Of a stretch of 35,122 nt of DNA, positions 1-30,143 are shown piece by piece. Numbering within the stretch: position 1 is the stretch's first letter; every line of letters starts with the position of its first letter. Both the position numbers and the translations under genes were made by a program. Origin of the DNA: a virus (Duplodnaviria; Heunggongvirae; Uroviricota; Caudoviricetes); IMG/VR virus record IMGVR_UViG_2713896901_000010; one strand, given 5' to 3'. Below the pieces are notes generated by a model. That model saw nothing but the letters and a program-made list of their open reading frames with translations, did no database searches and was not told the DNA's origin.

Positions 1-258
1 ATGCAGCAGTATCACTATCCACTGGAAGACGGATTTACCGAAAGGATTCACACGCCGGGAGGCGTCAGGTCACTGGTGGAGGGATCGCACTTGATGAAAT
101 TACTCCGGGATCTCAATAAGGATGGATTTAATGTCGATGGCCCACTTGCCGAACTGACTGCACTGATTAACTACGTCACCAGCTCACAGATGTCTATGCA
201 GGATCTGCAAACACATCTCGACTATTGTGCCGAACAATTACGAAAACAAACCAGATAA
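1..258 (+). CDS. C-terminal fragment of an antirepressor-family protein (5' end upstream of window)
   Basis: Frame open from window edge to TAA 256-258; its ~80 aa share ~45% identity with the C-terminal module of the two complete antirepressor genes (576-1226, 2008-2952). Confidence 0.5.
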   Translation: MQQYHYPLEDGFTERIHTPGGVRSLVEGSHLMKLLRDLNKDGFNVDGPLAELTALINYVTSSQMSMQDLQTHLDYCAEQLRKQTR

Positions 259-261
259 GGT

Positions 262-290
262 TTGAAATTACCAAGTGGAGTGCTTATATT
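262..290 (+). promoter_or_regulatory. sigma70-like promoter TTGAAA-N17-TATATT
   Basis: -35 TTGAAA 262-267, 17-bp spacer, -10 TATATT 285-290; last T of -10 is first T of operator 290-304. Confidence 0.5.
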
Positions 291-304
291 TACCTTTGCG
301 GTAA
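290..304. promoter_or_regulatory. operator dyad TTACC-N5-GGTAA (site A)
   Basis: Perfect 5+5 inverted half-sites ttacc tttgc ggtaa. Confidence 0.6.
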
Positions 305-394
305 ATTTACATCGCACTCCTCTTGTGCCATAGTAATCGGGCACTGGCAAAATCCAGTGTCGGGATTGGTCTCCCGGATTACTAAGTGGCGCAT

Positions 395-417
395 ACCACG
401 CCAGACGTGGTTTTTTT
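395..417 (+). terminator. rho-independent terminator
   Basis: Stem accacg/cgtggt with 5-nt loop followed by T7 run 411-417. Confidence 0.6.
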
Positions 418-575
418 ATGCGTATAGCACAGTCATGCCAGAATTATGGTGGGCTGAATGGGGGTCCGAAAGGACGCCGGTACCACTTAGGCCGGTAAGA
501 CCAACTCCGTTCAGTTCACCACCATCTGATTGGTCTCAGCGGTGGTGATGTAATTCGCTAAGTGGAGACGCCATA

Positions 576-1226
576 ATGAACGCTCAACTCATCCCCGTAT
601 TCAACGGCACTATATCCAACGAAACCGCTCTTCTCGTTAATGCCCGTGATTTACACACTTTCCTCGATGTGGGTAAGCGATTTGCTTCGTGGATTGTCGA
701 ACGAATTGCTGAATATGGTTTCGTTGAAAATCAAGACTTTATGATTATTTCCCAAGTTCGGGAAAAAATAGGCAGAGGCCGTCCTGCAAAAGACTACCAC
801 CTCACCCTCGATACAGCCAAAGAGCTGGCGATGGTCGAGCGTAACGAAAAAGGTCGTCAGGTACGACGCTACTTCATTGAATGCGAGAAACGTTTAAGAC
901 AACAAGAAACAAAAGTGGAGAAGGTCTTGTCAGGCTTCATGCCCGCCATTATGGAGGCGATCAAGCTGGAAGACAAAAAAGAATACAGCGCCCCGCTGAA
1001 GCCCGGCTACCGCAGTCTGATTCATTCTCCGTCTGGTGTTCTCGGCCTGACGGAGAACTCACTGCTGATGAATCTGCTGAACCAGTTACAGGACGACGGG
1101 CACGACGTATCGGGCGCGGCGGCGGAGCTGACAACCATGTTCTGCTACATCGTCGGTGTGAGCAAATGCCTGCGTGATATCCAGACACACGCGGAGTACA
1201 TCAACGACAAGGCAGGATTCTTCTGA
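576..1226 (+). CDS. phage antirepressor, KilAC-type N-terminal domain plus shared C-terminal module
   Basis: ATG 576 with GGAG 9 nt upstream; N-terminal ...DYHLTLDTAKELAMVERNEKGRQVRRYFIECEKR matches the KilA-C/ANT antirepressor signature; last 80 aa identical to the C-terminus of the 2008-2952 product. Confidence 0.8.
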   Translation: MNAQLIPVFNGTISNETALLVNARDLHTFLDVGKRFASWIVERIAEYGFVENQDFMIISQVREKIGRGRPAKDYHLTLDTAKELAMVERNEKGRQVRRYFIECEKRLRQQETKVEKVLSGFMPAIMEAIKLEDKKEYSAPLKPGYRSLIHSPSGVLGLTENSLLMNLLNQLQDDGHDVSGAAAELTTMFCYIVGVSKCLRDIQTHAEYINDKAGFF

Positions 1227-1248
1227 CGGCGGCGGCACAGGGATGTGC
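994..1248. repeat. inverted repeat arm 1 (~255 bp, ~95% identical to reverse complement of 1985-2241)
   Basis: Direct comparison: only a handful of synonymous third-position differences plus one 3-5 nt indel just after the stop codon. Confidence 0.8.
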
Positions 1249-1260
1249 CTTTAAATAATT
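1234..1260 (+). terminator. weak hairpin terminator after antirepressor gene
   Basis: ggcaca-ggga-tgtgcc hairpin followed by tttaaataatt; lies inside the inverted repeat. Confidence 0.35.
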
Positions 1261-1290
1261 CTGTACAGATTGCAGGTGAATAGCGTACTA

Positions 1291-1305
1291 TTACCCCAAA
1301 GGTAA
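1291..1305. promoter_or_regulatory. operator dyad TTACC-N5-GGTAA (site B)
   Basis: ttacc ccaaa ggtaa; abuts a -10-like TACTAT (1286-1291), 14 bp upstream of ATG 1319. Confidence 0.6.
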
Positions 1306-1318
1306 ACCGAGAGTTTAC

Positions 1319-1534
1319 ATGAGGGGGGGAAGCATGGAACTGAACATCATCACATTAATGAAAGCGCTTATTGGCGGTGCAGGAAGTGGCTTTGCTCTTT
1401 CTGGCGGGCTGTCTATGATCATACCTACTTTCACAGTGACGACTGGCGTTGCCTACCTTTTTGCCATTACTGGCGGTCTGGCTATGGCAGGTACTTACAT
1501 TTTAAAAAAAATGAGTTCCGGTAGTGCAGACTGA
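1319..1534 (+). CDS. small glycine-zipper membrane peptide (66-71 aa), function unknown
   Basis: ATG 1319 or ATG 1334 preceded by GAGGGGGGG; product MELNIITLMKALIGG/AGSGFALSGGLSMIIPTFTVTTGVAYLFAITGGLAMAGTYILKK is hydrophobic with repeated small-xxx-small motifs; AT-rich. Confidence 0.55.
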   Translation: MRGGSMELNIITLMKALIGGAGSGFALSGGLSMIIPTFTVTTGVAYLFAITGGLAMAGTYILKKMSSGSAD

Positions 1535-1871
1535 GATCGTACAAGAATCACATTGGTACAATCCACAGACCGCTCAGGAGCTGGCGATCTTTTATTGTAT
1601 CCTTTGCATTGTGTATATAGTAATCCACCTGATATGGGATTTTCTCTCAAAAGAGACTGGTAGGTTTTCTGTTGTTAACCTTCAGTACAAACTGAATGAG
1701 GTATATTCATCAACCACATTCGCAACGAGTGGTTTTTTCCTCGTTATGTTATGCGACATGAATAACCCTCTTAGAACATCAGATGCGTTTATCATACCGC
1801 TTATCTTGGCAATGCTTACTGGATTCATGATATCAATATCCGCAATAGCGCCAAAAAAAGTTAACATTTAA
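1524..1871 (+). CDS. predicted 3-TM membrane protein (start uncertain, GTG 1524)
   Basis: Overlaps stop of upstream gene; three hydrophobic segments; no ATG before residue 75, so the start is unresolved; stop TAA 1869-1871 sits at the foot of a strong terminator. Confidence 0.4.
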   Translation: MQTEIVQESHWYNPQTAQELAIFYCILCIVYIVIHLIWDFLSKETGRFSVVNLQYKLNEVYSSTTFATSGFFLVMLCDMNNPLRTSDAFIIPLILAMLTGFMISISAIAPKKVNI

Positions 1872-1893
1872 GCCCGCACTGCGGGCTTTTTTG
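1871..1893 (+). terminator. rho-independent terminator
   Basis: agcccgc-act-gcgggct hairpin followed by TTTTTT. Confidence 0.75.
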
Positions 1894-1930
1894 TGTCTGC
1901 GGATTCCCGCCCGGGCGGCGGTGGCATTCG

Positions 1931-1956
1931 TTAAAAACAAGGCCGCGAAAGCGGCC
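1931..1956 (-). terminator. rho-independent terminator for the minus-strand ant gene
   Basis: On minus strand GGCCGC-tttc-GCGGCC followed by TTGTTTTT. Confidence 0.6.
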
Positions 1957-1957
1957 T

Positions 1958-1969
1958 GTGACATGTCAC
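1958..1969. repeat. 12-bp perfect palindrome GTGACATGTCAC (copy 1 of 2)
   Basis: Identical 12-mer recurs at 22609-22620; both copies sit just 5' of a minus-strand terminator. Confidence 0.5.
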
Positions 1970-1984
1970 GATAGTTCCGTTTTG

Positions 1985-2241
1985 CACATCCCTGTGCCGC
2001 CGTTCTGTCAGAAGAACCCTGCCTTGTCGTTGATGTACTCCGCGTGGGTCTGGATATCACGCAGGCACTTGCTCACACCGACGATGTAGCAGAACATGGT
2101 GGTCAGCTCCGCCGCCGCGCCCGATACATCGTGCCCGTCGTCCTGTAACTGGTTAAGCAGATTCATCAGCAGTGAGTTCTCCGTCAGGCCGAGAACACCC
2201 GACGGCGAATGAATCAGACTGCGGTAGCCGGGCTTCAGCGG
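1985..2241. repeat. inverted repeat arm 2 (partner of 994-1248)
   Basis: Reverse complement matches 994-1248 at ~95%. Confidence 0.8.
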
Positions 2242-2952
2242 ATAACCATAACATTTTGTCTGTGTTTTAATTGCCTCACGAAGCGCATCTAACATCTTGA
2301 CTGCCACTTCATCATTCTCTGATGCAGATCCAGCAGGGAGATGCTCCCCTTCAAGCGGAACCCGAGCAACAAGAGACAACGCTTCGGCGAATTGATCTTC
2401 ATCAATTTCTTTGTACGAACAGCCAAAATGAGATTTCAGTGACGACCACATGGTGATCATCGCCTTAGCCTGTTTTTCTTTTGGCAGAGACTGACCGCGA
2501 CTCATGACGAGTTGTTTAATGGCTTCCTGCTGTTCAGTGGTTATTTTACCCGGCAGCGCCTTTTTAGCTTTGCGTGGGTTAACCACATGGCCTTTAGTCC
2601 AGTACTCGTAGAGCACATCGTCACACTCTTCCTGATACTGGATTACCTTGTCGCGGATTTCAGGGCGGACTTTGTTAGGGCTGATGGTTTGCAACCAGCC
2701 AGCAAGTTTGCGAAGTGCCAAACAAATAATCTCACGGCGCTGTTCATCCCCAGGAAGCTGCATTGTGATTTTCACAATGCAGGTTTTAAACCGCTGCTTC
2801 ATTTTCGTAAACTGTGAAGCCCAATCCATACCCATGCCTTCAACGATAGGTTTCATTGGGGTGTACGGTTCTCCGTTGTGATTGACAACATAAAGTTCTG
2901 CGCCGTGGAATGGCACGTTGATAGTAGATACCGCTGTTGCTATACTCGCCAT
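2008..2952 (-). CDS. ant: antirepressor Ant (P22 Ant-like N-terminus plus shared C-terminal module)
   Basis: ATG 2952 with AGGA upstream; N-terminus ...INVPFHGAELYVVNHNGEPYTPMKPIVEGMG resembles P22 Ant ...SYVPFNGQQVRTVLIDGEPWF; sits downstream of arc as in P22 immI. Confidence 0.8.
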   Translation of the reverse strand: MASIATAVSTINVPFHGAELYVVNHNGEPYTPMKPIVEGMGMDWASQFTKMKQRFKTCIVKITMQLPGDEQRREIICLALRKLAGWLQTISPNKVRPEIRDKVIQYQEECDDVLYEYWTKGHVVNPRKAKKALPGKITTEQQEAIKQLVMSRGQSLPKEKQAKAMITMWSSLKSHFGCSYKEIDEDQFAEALSLVARVPLEGEHLPAGSASENDEVAVKMLDALREAIKTQTKCYGYPLKPGYRSLIHSPSGVLGLTENSLLMNLLNQLQDDGHDVSGAAAELTTMFCYIVGVSKCLRDIQTHAEYINDKAGFF

Positions 2953-3024
2953 GTCGTTAATTCCTATACGTAGTTTTACGATACTGAAGCCCTGACGGTC
3001 TGGCCACCGTTGGGCTTCGCTGTT

Positions 3025-3192
3025 TTATGCCACGCTATTCTTCTCACCAGTGAGTCCATACACTTTCCTCAGCTGATAGATAATCTCTGTATTGAACTTT
3101 CGGCATTCTTTTTCGCCATTTCTTTCAATAGCTAACTTCACATCGTCCGGAAAACGAACTCGTCGTTGACACATCTCTTTTGCTTTTTGCAT
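3025..3192 (-). CDS. arc: Arc-like ribbon-helix-helix repressor (55 aa)
   Basis: Internal ATG 3192 with AAGGAG at 7-nt spacing; RRVRFPDDVKLAIERNGEKECRKFNTEIIYQL parallels P22 Arc RWPREVLDLVRKVAEENGRSVNSEIYQRV. Confidence 0.75.
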   Translation of the reverse strand: MQKAKEMCQRRVRFPDDVKLAIERNGEKECRKFNTEIIYQLRKVYGLTGEKNSVA

Positions 3193-3206
3193 TTCATATC
3201 TCCTTG

Positions 3207-3266
3207 GCCCCACCGTGGGGCAAAACAATTGTCACACCGTGCGTCATTGATGTCAAGCACACGGTG
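3207..3266. promoter_or_regulatory. divergent arc/mnt control region with three spaced CACCGTG/CACGGTG heptamers
   Basis: caccgtg 3211-3217 (inside palindrome gccccaccgtggggc 3207-3221), caccgtg 3235-3241, cacggtg 3260-3266; spacing 24 and 25 bp. Confidence 0.5.
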
Positions 3267-3312
3267 AGGCATACTTCAATCATTGCAAGTAACTCAATAT
3301 TTGGTGAAGAAC

Positions 3313-3744
3313 ATGAGCAGAGAAGATCCACAACTAAGGATCAGACTTCCCGTTGAAGTAAAAGAAAAAATAGAAATTTCTGCAAAAGCCAATAAGCGAT
3401 CAATGAACGCTGAAATAGTACAACGTCTTGACACCAGCTTTCTGAAAGATATTCATGAAGATGACGTAATTTCTGCTTATGAAGCAAAAATTATTGCAAA
3501 CAATGCACGGCATGAAATATCAAATATTATTTTCAAAAGAACTTTTAATGAAATCAATAAGAAAATAACACTTGGACATACAAGTTTTTATATAAACCTT
3601 AATGACCTTGAACTGGAATCACTTGCAGATAATGATTACCAGATCATCTTTGAAAAAACATTTAATAAGCTCAATGAACTAGGTTACATCATCTGTGAAA
3701 ACTCATGGGATGCAGATGGTTTTGGAATTGAAATACCTGAATAG
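3313..3744 (+). CDS. mnt: Mnt-like RHH repressor with ~60-aa extra C-terminal extension
   Basis: ATG 3313 (table start 3283 is TTG); MSREDPQLRIRLPVEVKEKIEISAKANKRSMNAEIVQRL closely parallels P22 Mnt MARDDPHFNFRMPMEVREKLKFRAEANGRSMNSELLQIV; divergent from arc-ant as in P22. Confidence 0.8.
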   Translation: MSREDPQLRIRLPVEVKEKIEISAKANKRSMNAEIVQRLDTSFLKDIHEDDVISAYEAKIIANNARHEISNIIFKRTFNEINKKITLGHTSFYINLNDLELESLADNDYQIIFEKTFNKLNELGYIICENSWDADGFGIEIPE

Positions 3745-3786
3745 GAAGAACAAAAGGCGTGTACATATTACACGTCTTTAATACAA

Positions 3787-4398
3787 TTGAAAAACGCCAC
3801 ATTACTGATGTATGTTACAACAAGGAGCGATATTTTGAAAACCATATCTATATTAAAGGTTGCATTAGGCGTCGCTATTATTTTGACTCTCTCAATATTG
3901 TTTTATTTTTACCACAAAAAAACTGCTATTGCTCTTGATGGTCACGCGGCAAACTCATTTTTCTCAGAGTACATAGTGCCGCTATCAGGAAGCGGTATAA
4001 CAAATAAATATACTGACTATGACATCAAATATGGAATTGATGATGGGGAGACTATTGCATTACATGTAATCATTAAAAACCTAATGACAGTAAATAAAAA
4101 TACAGACTTCAACGATAAAAATACAATACATCACAACAACAGCAAAACATTAATTTCTTATAGTAGCAACATCTATACGGATAAATACCTAAAATACATC
4201 TCAGAAGATACAATAAAAGCAACCAGCGAAAAGTTAAAAAACATATATTGTGCATCCGGCAGTTTTCACAAATTATCGCCGCAAGAGCGTTTATTCTACG
4301 AAGCAAGAAAACAACGTAAGTCAATAATATTCCATTATTATGCTGATTCAGGGGAGTCACTCATATTTAATATTGGGGTTTCCCCTGAATCATGCTAA
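3787..4398 (+). CDS. membrane-anchored protein of unknown function at the sieA position
   Basis: Most likely start is TTG 3835 (AAGGAG 3822-3827, 7-nt spacer), alternative ATG 3808; one N-terminal TM helix then an Asn/Lys/Tyr-rich domain; very AT-rich. Confidence 0.55.
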   Translation: MKNATLLMYVTTRSDILKTISILKVALGVAIILTLSILFYFYHKKTAIALDGHAANSFFSEYIVPLSGSGITNKYTDYDIKYGIDDGETIALHVIIKNLMTVNKNTDFNDKNTIHHNNSKTLISYSSNIYTDKYLKYISEDTIKATSEKLKNIYCASGSFHKLSPQERLFYEARKQRKSIIFHYYADSGESLIFNIGVSPESC

Positions 4399-4409
4399 AG
4401 GCGTTTAAC

Positions 4410-7400
4410 TCACCGCATCACCGGATCCACCTGGTTTATTAGTGGCGCAATCCAGAACAGGTTATTGCCTGGTATCAGGGTTCGGACATTATGCACAATA
4501 CGATCACCGGCATCACCATTCAACACTCCTGCGGTCACATCAATGATGCTATCCGCAAGACCAAATGACGGTCCGAATAGAGATCCTACGAATCCACGAC
4601 TGGCATACCTAGACTGTGTGCCAGTGCCAAATAAAGCCCCCAGCCCAACAGCACCACCAGTAGCCTTTTCAGCCATGTTGTTATATTCCATCAATGGCCC
4701 AAGAATACCGGATCTATCTATACCCTCAAGCACCAGCTTCTCTGGTGACCAGTCAACATTTTTCCCTTTCGATGCTTCTTTTAGCGCATAGACCAGTGAG
4801 CCAAGAGCAATCTGAAATGCAGTGCCATAATAAAATTGCGCAGTTCCTTCCTGTAACCCACCAAGTAGCGCACGGTTGTATGAAGCCGTTGTGAATGATT
4901 TAAACTGAAATATCGTTCGCCCCATTGGAGTACTCGCCCATAAAGGTGTGTCACCAATACCGGGGGTGATGATAGTGTTATTAACGTCTTTCAGAACCGC
5001 TGACTGGAATACTCCGGCAACGTACTGATCGTCCCATTTATCAAAGTTACCAATGTGCCATCCATCAATTACCTCACCATGTTTCTCGAACTCACTGCGA
5101 ATACGCGCAGCCATATTGTCGTTGATACCGAGTTTTGCCATGCGACGTGCAGAAAACGCACCAGACAAAATACCGTCTGACGTGAGCATTCCGTTCATGG
5201 ATTTGTTTATGTCATTAAATCGATCCATGAGTGTCAGCTTGCCGAAGGCATCAGTAATTCGCTCCATTCCTGCTTCGACTGCTGTTGTCCTGGAAGAACT
5301 GTCAACAAGATCACCAATTGCACGAGAACGTGAATGTAGTACAGCTTCCAATCCAATCCCCATCTTCAACATCTCTTCTTTGCTGGCCTTAAATGCCGGT
5401 GATTGGGATATCTGAGAAGCATAGCCTTTCATGGTGTTACGGAAACCATTAACCATAACCCCTCTGGCCAGATCTGGAATAGCTGATACTGTCATTCCAC
5501 CGAGTTTGGTCGTGAAGTTCACATCCCGCAGAAAAGCGCCAGCACGAACAAAAAACGAAGACGGATCATCAGGCATACCATATGTACCAACAAGACGATC
5601 GCGTAATGCTGTTATGTCTCTGAGATCATTTGCTCTTGATTTTGAAAGTCTGGACTGTTCTTTCCGTAATTCCTTTTCGTACTTTCGCATTAATGAATCG
5701 AGTTTACCCTGAGGAACAACTTCACCATTGCTCTCATAACGTGCTTTCAGATTTGCCACACTTTCGTCATATTTCGCCTTTATTTTTTCAGGCACTTCCC
5801 GTAACAGACTGTCATATTCGTCCTCAATTAATTGCAGACGCTCAGTCATAGTTCGTTTGCCAAATGTTCTCGTCAACTCAATTTCTGCTGCCGCTTCACG
5901 GATATGACGTTGCAGCACGTAATTCACATCACTTTCAAGATAATCCCTGATAAGACTATCAGGAACATTTAATGTTCTTTCTTTCGTACTACCTGCGGCT
6001 TTTACAGAAAATACGCTGACAAAATCCTGTGGAACCTTAGCACCAGTAATTTTATTAATTACGATATCCGCTGCAATTTCAGCATCCTCAGGATCCAGTG
6101 TTTTATTTCCTCTCGACCACCAGCCAACCAAAATACGTCGAAATTTATCGCGTTCACTGATTATTTTTCCAACTTTATATATGCGTGGGAAATAGCTTGC
6201 CTGGCCTAATGCTTTCAGTTCTTCATCTGGCGGCAATAAACCAAGCTTTTGCATTTCAACTTTCACCCGATTTAATACAGTTCGCATCGCCTGCGCCGTT
6301 TCCTGAACAACAGGATTAGCATGCACATCACCGCTTCGCATAGCATTCCCAACCTGCTGACGAAATGAATCAAAACTCATGTCACCACCATCAGCTTTAT
6401 ACTTTGCGTATGCCTGTTTATTTCCGACAACAACAGCAGCTTCTTCACGCTGCCATCCACGTGTACGGGTTTCTACAGCTACCGGTGTTTCAATCCCCCT
6501 TTCATTTCCTTTAAGGGTGAAATTATTTTCGGCTAACTCCAGCGTTGTTTTTCGCACCGTCTTGGACGGAGACTCCATTAACCTTGTCAAAGGAGTAAGA
6601 TAGCTCCCTGCTTTCCATGCAGCCTTTCCAACCCACCCACCGGAAACAGGGGTTAAATCATCCAGAGTCGCTGTATCAATTTTCATAGCACCAACACTAC
6701 CACCATCGGAAAGCGAAGCGGCAGCCCTGTCAGTCGCTGATGTAATGCTCATATTATCAAGAGCATCAGCAACCTCACGTGTGGCTGCAGCCCGGACGGA
6801 TGGCGAAAGCGCAACACCAGCACTGGCAAACACGCCGCTCATCATCGCACCCGCTGCAACGTGAGCGGCACTTTCACCCCATGAGCGTGTTATTTGCTGA
6901 TTATTCAGTACAACCTCGCTTAATGCTGTACCGGCAGCACCAATCGCAATCTGTGAGCCAATACGCGCCAGTGCCCCTCCTTGAGCACCGGGAATAAACA
7001 TTGACGCAACAGTAACCGGATCCATTCCCGCAGCAATACTGGCAAGGGTTCCAACTACGCCAGCATCAGACAATAAACGTCTGTCTTCATTTTCATCATC
7101 TATCTGCTGCTTAATCCACGCCGTTTCCTCTGGCGATCGGGAATCTGCAAATTTCGCCCCCCAGTATTCATAACCGTGCAACTCATTTTTATCAGCATAT
7201 GGGTTATAACCCTCGACCGGTTCAAACTGTCTGGCTGGGCGGAAAAAACCAGACAGAATATTGTTCTGTCGCATTGCAGCCCCCCATACGGAAGGCTCAG
7301 GTGGCAATGGCTCAGGATTAGCCCCTTCCGGAAGGGCAACATCAAACCCAGTTTGTTCCGGCAAAACATTACCTGACGGGATCAGTCCGTTATTAAGATC

Positions 7401-30114: not shown

Positions 30115-30143
30115 TTGACATCAAACCAGATACGCATAATTAT
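30115..30143 (+). promoter_or_regulatory. pL-like promoter TTGACA-N17-AATTAT
   Basis: Consensus -35 at 30115-30120; -10 at 30138-30143 whose last T is the first base of operator H2. Confidence 0.55.

Follow-up and report, generated by a model that had tools for sequence, protein, structure and literature searches.

A putative immunity-repressor-gated operon for two small membrane proteins in a Uetakevirus-like temperate phage

Small membrane proteins are among the least understood accessory genes of phages. T4 Imm, a small protein with several spans in the inner membrane, is made early in lytic growth, works in the cell that makes it and blocks DNA injection. The immI unit of P1 (c4 - icd - ant, under the control of C1) is a repressor-controlled antirepressor unit with a small host-directed gene, the product of which, Icd, is a soluble cell-division inhibitor encoded in the same transcript. 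Pinholin S21, together with its antiholin form, has about 70 residues and ends in a short basic C-terminus; one of its two helices is of weak hydrophobicity and contains many small residues. Class II microcins (for example microcin V, with Cvi) are encoded by a gene for a small Gly-rich peptide with a double glycine at residues 14-15, followed by a gene for a small membrane protein. The alpha-polymerase inhibitor Iap (gp22) of epsilon15 is a protein of 66 residues with two annotated transmembrane domains, encoded in the accessory region by the tailspike gene. The temperate, short-tailed phage P22 encodes SieA, an inner-membrane protein with three predicted helices (PMC10883804), in its antirepressor (immI) neighbourhood, where the gene lies between those for the tailspike and the ejection proteins. 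The present analysis concerns a compact gene pair, two genes within about 540 bp behind a defined operator, located at positions 1334-1871 of a 35,122-nucleotide stretch of caudoviral DNA (IMG/VR record IMGVR_UViG_2713896901_000010; hereafter the window). The pair represents an uncharacterised family within a known general kind, the accessory small membrane proteins of temperate phages; it is real and compact, and there is so far no sign of an unusual mechanism.

The 35-kb window is almost an entire temperate phage of the epsilon15/phiV10 type (genus Uetakevirus, Uetakevirus-like), the closest records being Uetakevirus phages and Escherichia coli prophages. It begins at the left end just past the tailspike gene, carries an integrase gene at the right end, and encodes head, portal, tail and internal virion proteins, a small terminase, a lambda-P-like replication protein and a 194-residue helix-turn-helix (HTH) repressor, the gene for which faces a cro-like gene. 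The gene pair lies between two antirepressor genes, ant1 and ant2, and an identical module (100% identity) is present in the AHB29 prophage. We tentatively favour, with a confidence that for the complete package falls somewhat short of even, an explanation in which the pair forms a repressor-gated accessory operon for an inner-membrane complex of two subunits with its site of action in the cell that produces it. The regulatory and the structural parts of this explanation merit much higher confidence than the whole, and the specific role low confidence.

An earlier note on this DNA, made from the letters alone, had proposed a two-gene membrane operon at this locus, and the open reading frames (ORFs), hydropathy, substitution rates and a three-helix structural model all agree with it. 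The small-subunit gene (1334-1534, plus strand) encodes a peptide of 66 residues (MELNIITLMKALIGGAGSGFALSGGLSMIIPTFTVTTGVAYLFAITGGLAMAGTYILKKMSSGSAD), predicted to form a two-helix membrane hairpin, and the large-subunit gene (1524-1871, plus strand) encodes a protein of 115 residues from a GTG start codon, with an 11-nt overlap with the peptide stop. In comparison with the CH468 copy, the ratio of non-synonymous to synonymous substitution rates (dN/dS) is 0.089 for the peptide gene and 0.051 for the 115-residue gene (88% identical). Both genes are under purifying selection and, by this measure, the 115-residue ORF is a genuine gene.

Read from the ATG at 1319, further upstream, the peptide ORF would encode 71 residues. 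Position 1334 is preferred as the real start, because the Shine-Dalgarno sequence GAGGGGGGGA (1321-1330, plus strand; G-run of 5-7 among relatives), which is the G-rich ribosome-binding site pointed out earlier, lies 3 nt upstream of it and because the relatives begin with ME[LI/T][NS] or the variants MD, MS or MK. The ATG at 1319 is in frame with the peptide solely through a run of seven G, which has 5-6 G in relatives, and its equivalent there is out of frame or absent; PGAP annotates the 66-residue form. The peptide consists to 48% of Gly, Ala, Ser and Thr, is weakly hydrophobic over its full length, ends in KK and contains many [GAS]xxx[GAS] repeats, as judged by hydropathy and motif analysis. 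K10 and G14-G15-A16-G17 are conserved, and family alignments place the most conserved part in residues 1-37. The peptide matches the whole 62-position profile of phrog_13406 (unknown function; 2.6e-36). Both of its ends probably face the cytoplasm, with the GGAG motif within membrane helix 1; the basic residues that precede helix 1 in two distant partners (L039 and L041) suggest the cytoplasmic location of the ends.

For the 115-residue protein, an AlphaFold model based on a 20-sequence alignment consists of three long helices with a pLDDT (the confidence score of the model) of 77.8, compared with 63.6 for an earlier model. The predicted membrane helices span residues 17-41, 50-77 and 87-108, in agreement with hydropathy, so that the prediction of transmembrane topology bears out the three membrane spans proposed from the letters. 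The protein matches phrog_36716 (unknown function; 3.9e-60) over all 86 profile positions, corresponding to residues 30-115. Three features are invariant among close relatives: HxxWD, which closes helix 1 on what would be its cytoplasmic side; YSSTTFATS, with which helix 2 would begin; and NPLRTSDAF, a loop that would be periplasmic. In the wide family Y24, W38, D39, K56, P92, G100 and P110 are invariant in the 20-sequence alignment; in a 32-sequence alignment strict invariance is limited to Y24 and P110, with W38, D39, K56, P92 and G100 nearly invariant. The N-terminus is acidic, the loop past helix 1 is net-basic and the C-terminus is basic, a distribution that fits the N-out/C-in topology which the protein probably adopts.

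The GTG start codon of the large gene has a weak Shine-Dalgarno sequence and overlaps the peptide stop, an arrangement that suggests coupled, stoichiometric synthesis and not an over-produced antidote. The gene is left unannotated by PGAP in HB37, CH468 and AHB29, likely due to the GTG start, the weak Shine-Dalgarno sequence and the overlap with the upstream gene. Unannotated copies equivalent to 1524-1871 of the window are located at 4326-4673 of L001, at 4182-4538 of L002 and in L048 (AHB29). Other strains have an annotated, diverged homologue that begins with ATG, and the restriction of the PHROG profile to residues 30-115 suggests the use of an internal start codon in the calling of other annotated copies. 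The definition of the family thus includes a gene missed by a standard annotation pipeline.

The two genes are strictly paired. The small gene lies directly upstream of the gene for the three-transmembrane protein in all 33 related loci that have upstream sequence, with a stop-to-start gap of 1-7 nt or an overlap, and no copy of the large gene devoid of the small gene was seen among the related loci examined. The same pairing is found in the more distant Enterobacterales copies, and the metagenome relatives of the three-transmembrane protein (25-33% identity) have immediately upstream a gene for a small hydrophobic two-helix protein that carries the motif [KQ]-x-x-[IV]-[GA]-G-[AV]-G. A hidden Markov model (HMM) derived from the enterobacterial peptides identifies the partners in L043 and L045 clearly (36 and 32 bits, respectively). 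An exhaustive profile search for the 115-residue family gave 84 clusters of full-length relatives at 50% identity. In one uncultured viral contig, a prophage (L035, 3935-4322), the large gene is frameshifted into pieces of 89 and 59 residues beside an intact peptide gene, which could be a sequencing error or a real loss.

The pair occupies two genomic contexts, the slot after ant1 in Uetakevirus-like prophages and the core chromosome of Yersinia. In eight Yersinia species (L005, L007-L009 and L011-L014, at about 3790-4330 in each) it lies between zntB and mppA, with no phage genes nearby and no operator; the neighbours are ttcA, zntB, mppA and unannotated core genes. The Yersinia pair is under purifying selection, and a host-level role is possible. 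The proximal upstream region in Yersinia retains TGTACA and a lone TTACC half-site, a hint that this island may have been derived from a phage copy. Other chromosomal copies in the Enterobacterales are located near phoPQ and beside hipBA. The pair is present in 22 of the 5426 complete E. coli genomes, always as a single chromosomal copy, and a tblastn search with both proteins against 50,697 deposited phage genomes gave no match. The module is thus seen in prophages, uncultured viral contigs and bacterial chromosomes, and not in deposited cultured-phage genomes. All homologues are named 'hypothetical protein' in the databases, the accessions and PHROG identifiers of the pair are mentioned in no paper in the literature, and a paper reporting an accessory-gene screen (PMC12373910) contains no mention of Uetakevirus, antirepressor or membrane proteins.

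Upstream of the pair, a promoter-like region can be read at 1262-1291 (plus strand), consisting of a -35-like TGTACA (1262-1267), an 18-nt spacer and a -10 hexamer TACTAT (1286-1291). It scores 8/12, its -35 element is weak and a consensus promoter scan missed it, which qualifies the promoter-like region of the earlier note. The final T of TACTAT is the first base of the palindrome TTACC-N5-GGTAA at 1291-1305 (TTACCCCAAAGGTAA), exactly the position given earlier for an operator termed B. The window contains 12 such sites against 0.67 expected, a number that no shuffle reached. Three of the sites lie between the cro-like and the HTH repressor genes (the third is imperfect and was read by eye), two lie on either side of a TTGACA promoter that closely follows the repressor gene, and the epsilon15 record labels ATTACCTGTAAGGTAAT, which has the same motif, as a repressor binding site ('repressor, lysogeny'). 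On the strength of the motif count, the clustering between the repressor and cro-like genes and the epsilon15 annotation, the palindrome is the immunity operator of this prophage. The further operator positions are 19448, 22498, 22516, 26975, 27037, 28984, 29321, 29369, 30081 and 30143; the operator also precedes the small terminase/structural region and the replication genes, and at several of the sites in the window a -10-like hexamer ends on the first T of the operator. This phage type may thus repress many transcription units directly and not through a cascade.

Every one of the 24 phage-borne copies carries the operator, 37-47 nt ahead of the peptide start codon and with fixed half-sites and a free 5-nt spacer, a pattern expected of a protein-binding site; it is absent upstream of all 12 chromosomal copies. 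The -10 position in the relatives reads TAATAT, TAAAAT or TAAGAT, each ending on the first T of the operator, and the same geometry is found at the ant1 promoter (TATATT at 285-290, operator at 290) and at 30143. The operon is therefore expected, on well-grounded reasoning, to be silent in the lysogen and switched on at derepression, as had been predicted earlier, a prediction now supported by the presence of the immunity operator at every phage-borne copy. The unit has several features of a moron, namely a promoter-like element, a strong terminator, a dip in GC content and variable presence among related phages; the position of the operator over the -10 in the 24 phage copies would nevertheless argue against moron-type expression from a repressed prophage. 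The GC content of the unit (0.39-0.44) is lower than that of its flanks (0.52-0.57), so that its description as AT-rich holds, albeit modestly.

At the downstream end, an intrinsic terminator (AAGCCCGCACTGCGGGCTT followed by a T-run; 1870-1894, plus strand) was identified by a terminator scan and overlaps the stop codon of the second gene. Its stem (1870-1888) has a folding energy of -16.1 kcal/mol (z = -3.9), and 0 of 200 shuffles folded as well, in keeping with the strong terminator noted previously. A search of positions 1-4500 against Rfam gave at this terminator just a sub-threshold Trp-leader match (21.6 against a threshold of 41 bits). The same scan identified a convergent intrinsic terminator of the ant2 operon at 1940-1957 (minus strand; -14.3 kcal/mol, z = -4.3). 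Two smaller palindromes accompany the promoter-like region. A small hairpin, GGCACA-GGGA-TGTGCC followed by TTTAAATAATT, at 1234-1249 (plus strand; -10.1 kcal/mol, z = -1.3, which alone is not significant) is kept in sequence in four of five related loci; it probably acts behind ant1 as an insulator or a weak terminator. Within the 5' untranslated region, GTAAAC-N5-GTTTAC (1302-1318, plus strand) overlaps the right half-site of the operator and sits between the operator and the ribosome-binding site; its fold is not significant (z = -0.7), its stem is kept with a variable loop in related loci, and one subgroup has at this position another 6-5-6 palindrome, TTCAAC-N5-GTTGAA. This pattern suggests an mRNA 5'-end hairpin or a second binding site.

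In the mechanism that we propose, the pair would be an old self-contained cassette, also existing phage-free in bacterial chromosomes, that the phage has placed behind a promoter whose -10 overlaps its own immunity-repressor site. The operon would be shut down in the lysogen, and infection or induction would switch it on along with the adjacent antirepressor gene. The small subunit would form a weakly hydrophobic, Gly/Ala-rich hairpin with a conserved polar residue and G-G-A-G in helix 1, the large subunit would contribute three helices, with its translation coupled to the end of the small gene, and both proteins would work as one unit in the cytoplasmic membrane of the producer and would not be secreted. 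By analogy with T4 Imm and P22 SieA, the favoured role would be an early-lytic exclusion of incoming phage DNA, or else a controlled change of permeability or energisation.

The described systems nearest to the pair differ from it in several respects. T4 Imm is a single protein of a virulent phage, and no homology is indicated, the PHROG matches of the pair being to families of unknown function. The BLASTP alignment of SieA with the 115-residue protein has an E-value of 4.2 over 20 residues, and the FxRYPxEAxxFNK motif (PMC10883804) is absent from the latter. SieA is also longer (162-164 residues) and is expressed from the prophage, whereas the large protein of the window needs a partner gene and belongs to an operon that carries the operator of the repressor; moreover, the positional equivalent of sieA in the window is not the pair but a gene for a 203-residue protein at 3787-4398. 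No homology to the pair was found for P22 orf59a. The window resembles P1 immI in having a C4 antisense RNA and an operator-controlled promoter before ant1; however, Icd is soluble and encoded within the same transcript, and the window instead has, downstream of ant, a pair of membrane-protein genes equipped with an operator and a terminator of their own. Structure searches return generic helical bundles only: Foldseek against PDB with the model of pLDDT 63.6 found nothing, and the model of pLDDT 77.8 had no match below E = 1 in a viral structure library. A sequence search of solved structures with the family profile gave noise only (PsaJ at E = 0.6).

Several observations weigh against the proposed mechanism. 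Repression could be leaky, in view of the weak -35 and the single operator, and the weak hairpin at 1234-1249 makes read-through from ant1 possible. The chromosomal copies that have no phage link show that the basic activity of the cassette is not phage-specific, and its patchy, island-like distribution, once next to hipBA, also fits a selfish toxin/antidote cassette. The peptide HMM reaches the L042 partner just at E = 0.002 in a 2415-ORF database and does not find the remaining far partners; since homology is statistically weak there, the argument for the far partners rests on synteny, architecture and the shared motif. It is conceivable, though doubtful, that the pair is the first described example of a two-subunit membrane effector family (a Gly-motif hairpin and a three-transmembrane protein, about 84 clusters at 50% identity across bacteria) that has been captured by temperate phages and wired to the immunity repressor, and that functions as an early-lytic exclusion or viroporin-like device or as an all-membrane toxin/antidote defence cassette. 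An exclusion or permeability device at the lytic switch would represent a new family in phage-phage competition and would account for the recurrent cargo beside the antirepressor and tailspike genes of epsilon15-like prophages. A pair without measurable effect would stay ordinary hypothetical cargo. The phage-wired copies and those in the Yersinia core genome lend themselves to a natural comparison.

Among the alternatives, the main rival, itself unlikely, is an intracellular membrane toxin with a membrane antidote, that is, a selfish addiction or abortive-infection cassette in which one of the two, in the simplest case the Gly-rich hairpin, would form oligomers and depolarise the membrane, with the partner restraining it until a trigger. 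The composition of the peptide, weakly hydrophobic and with many [GAS]xxx[GAS] repeats among its Gly, Ala, Ser and Thr residues, is like that of small pore-formers; the strict pairing, the rarity among the E. coli genomes and the scatter over prophage cargo slots and chromosomal sites of no common context, with hipBA as the neighbour in one case, also speak for such a cassette. Against this, PADLOC (E <= 10) gave no defence-system match for either protein or for the SCZE5 homologues and no toxin family was matched in Pfam, the putative antidote is encoded downstream with a weak Shine-Dalgarno sequence and coupled translation, which is the reverse of the usual excess of antitoxin, the L035 prophage keeps an intact peptide gene beside a frameshifted partner, and the pair has been stably inherited at one locus under purifying selection over eight Yersinia species. 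As regards a type I toxin with an antisense RNA, nothing was found in support, and the only antisense promoter-like match, at 1854-1827 (minus strand) is one of 8 against 8.9 expected by chance. An auxiliary holin/antiholin-like pair that times or assists lysis, which the earlier note had raised in the form of a pinholin-like pair, is improbable. The small protein does have two weakly hydrophobic helices and a short basic C-terminus, the in-frame upstream ATG of the window (MRGGSM...) would add positive charge as in dual-start holins, and the three-transmembrane protein, distant relatives of which have long charged C-tails, has the predicted N-out/C-in topology of class I holins. Unlike S21, however, the pair is not part of a lysis cassette: phiv142-3, epsilon15 and the AHB29 prophage have a complete cassette on the far side of the tailspike gene, outside the window, with genes for a GH19 endolysin, a spanin and two holin-like proteins. 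The variable G-run sets the frame of the dual start, which is therefore not conserved, no endolysin is found near the chromosomal copies, no holin profile in Pfam or PHROGs is matched, and the holin matches in structure searches are at noise level (E > 1).

A cell-surface conversion function, in which small membrane proteins inhibit an enzyme of the host envelope, for example the O-antigen polymerase, or redirect it, has a precedent in epsilon15 Iap, with its 66 residues and two helices and a shared accessory region by the tailspike gene. Further, the same-slot cargo orf10 of phiv142-3 is reported to influence serum resistance and capsule gene expression (PMC7724020). The idea is nonetheless very improbable: Iap gives no BLASTP alignment with the peptide at E <= 100 and gp23 is also without similarity, Iap is rich in leucine and isoleucine and not in glycine and has an O-antigen polymerase gene as its partner, and the present pair, the chromosomal copies of which are not near O-antigen genes, comes with no gene for a polymerase or transferase. 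Conversion genes, Iap included, are also expressed in lysogens, yet this operon bears the operator of the repressor. The earlier suggestion of a double-glycine bacteriocin or microcin with its immunity gene, that is, a class II precursor with a 15-residue leader released through a host exporter or by phage lysis, is the least probable. It is favoured by the glycines at residues 14-15 of the peptide, which would give a leader of the same length as that of microcin V, by the Gly/Ala/Ser-rich core and by the small polytopic membrane gene downstream; for class II microcins, an immunity protein that spans the inner membrane is usual (PMC12219008). Published screening patterns for the class II signal are M..R-x-[IL]-x9-G-[GAS] and the broader M..[KEQI]-x-[IL]-x9-G-[GAS] (PMC12219008); with the 'M...' read as M and 0-3 residues, a reading that the microcin V control passes, none of the 25 family peptides fits the first pattern, four fit the broader one in a shifted register only, and the window peptide fits neither. 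The profile searches that had been suggested (class II bacteriocin, holin, double-glycine leader) gave no match for either protein, with no bacteriocin, leader or immunity match in Pfam (E <= 1) or NCBIfam (E <= 10). No gene for a peptidase-ABC exporter or fusion protein was found among the window proteins scanned (the rest of the ORFs being unscanned), which are all phage structural, replication or regulatory proteins, or in the Yersinia and AHB29 neighbourhoods, the host genome elsewhere being outside the scope of the search. Two homologues have AG in place of GG, conservation is strongest over the first 37 residues and hence extends beyond a 15-residue leader, and the would-be mature peptide is nearly uncharged and strongly hydrophobic. 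The Gly motif of the distant syntenic partners comes after a long run of hydrophobic residues, itself preceded by basic residues in L039 and L041, which fits a location inside a membrane helix. In contrast to class II microcins, the N-terminal segment of the window peptide is hydrophobic and probably part of such a helix, and the bacteriocin idea now appears unlikely.

The genes that flank the preferred two-subunit operon are antirepressors of two different types, as had been recognised from the letters: ant1 (576-1226, plus strand) matches AntA/AntB (8e-28) and ant2 (2008-2952, minus strand) matches P22_AR_N (1e-44). The two ORFs have identical C-terminal protein sequences, encoded by the arms of an inverted repeat of 235 nt each, the left (993-1227, plus strand) coding for the C-terminal domain of ant1 and the right (2007-2241, minus strand) for that of ant2. 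A repeat search gave 97% complementarity between the arms, which are 779 nt apart and enclose precisely the cargo. If the arms recombined, the membrane operon would be inverted and both ant genes would stay intact. An ORF of 85 residues at 1-258 is a free-standing copy of the shared Ant C-terminal domain.

Between the operator-controlled promoter at 262-290 and ant1, Rfam places an isrK Hfq-binding RNA (341-417, plus strand; 65.5 bits, threshold 50), a P1/P7-type C4 antisense RNA (442-526, plus strand; 61.2 bits, threshold 45) and, below the threshold, a c4 target element (328-380). With its operator, C4 RNA and antirepressor, ant1 resembles an immI unit of the P1 type. A P22-type sar antisense RNA (2954-3021, plus strand; 45.2 bits, threshold 43) lies opposite the ant2 start, with an Arc-like gene of 67 residues (3025-3228, minus strand) and a Mnt-like gene encoding an Arc-domain protein of 153 residues (3283-3744, plus strand) beside it. 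Judged by these matches, the phage carries two face-to-face antirepressor systems of different ancestry, one P1-like and one P22-like.

The accessory slot after ant1 is filled differently among related phages, with different cargo in phiv142-3 and nothing comparable in epsilon15. As the operator also fronts the unrelated cargo of phiv142-3, it belongs to the slot, with varied cargo plugged in behind it. Downstream of the pair, comparison with intact copies identifies the 3' remnant of a third small gene (1896-1934, plus strand), of which the last 12 codons (..SADSRPGGGGIR*) are left and the 5' part is deleted. The gene is intact in L002 (4632-4784), L003 (3754-3915) and L004 (6848-7009) and in phiv142-3 as Orf11, and follows whichever cargo fills the slot; the intact form encodes a protein of 53 residues with a signal-peptide-like N-terminus and two cysteines (MKKAFAALFVLLSLVASTQAFAGRCQHDSDTAADGSRCGGRSADSRPGGGGIR). 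Further downstream, the gene for the 203-residue protein (plus strand), which holds the position of P22 sieA between mnt and the ejection-protein genes, lies in a very AT-rich stretch of GC content 0.30-0.35; its product has an N-terminal hydrophobic segment, belongs to phrog_8033 (unknown function) and shows a weak TIR-like (ThsB) match (E = 0.014).

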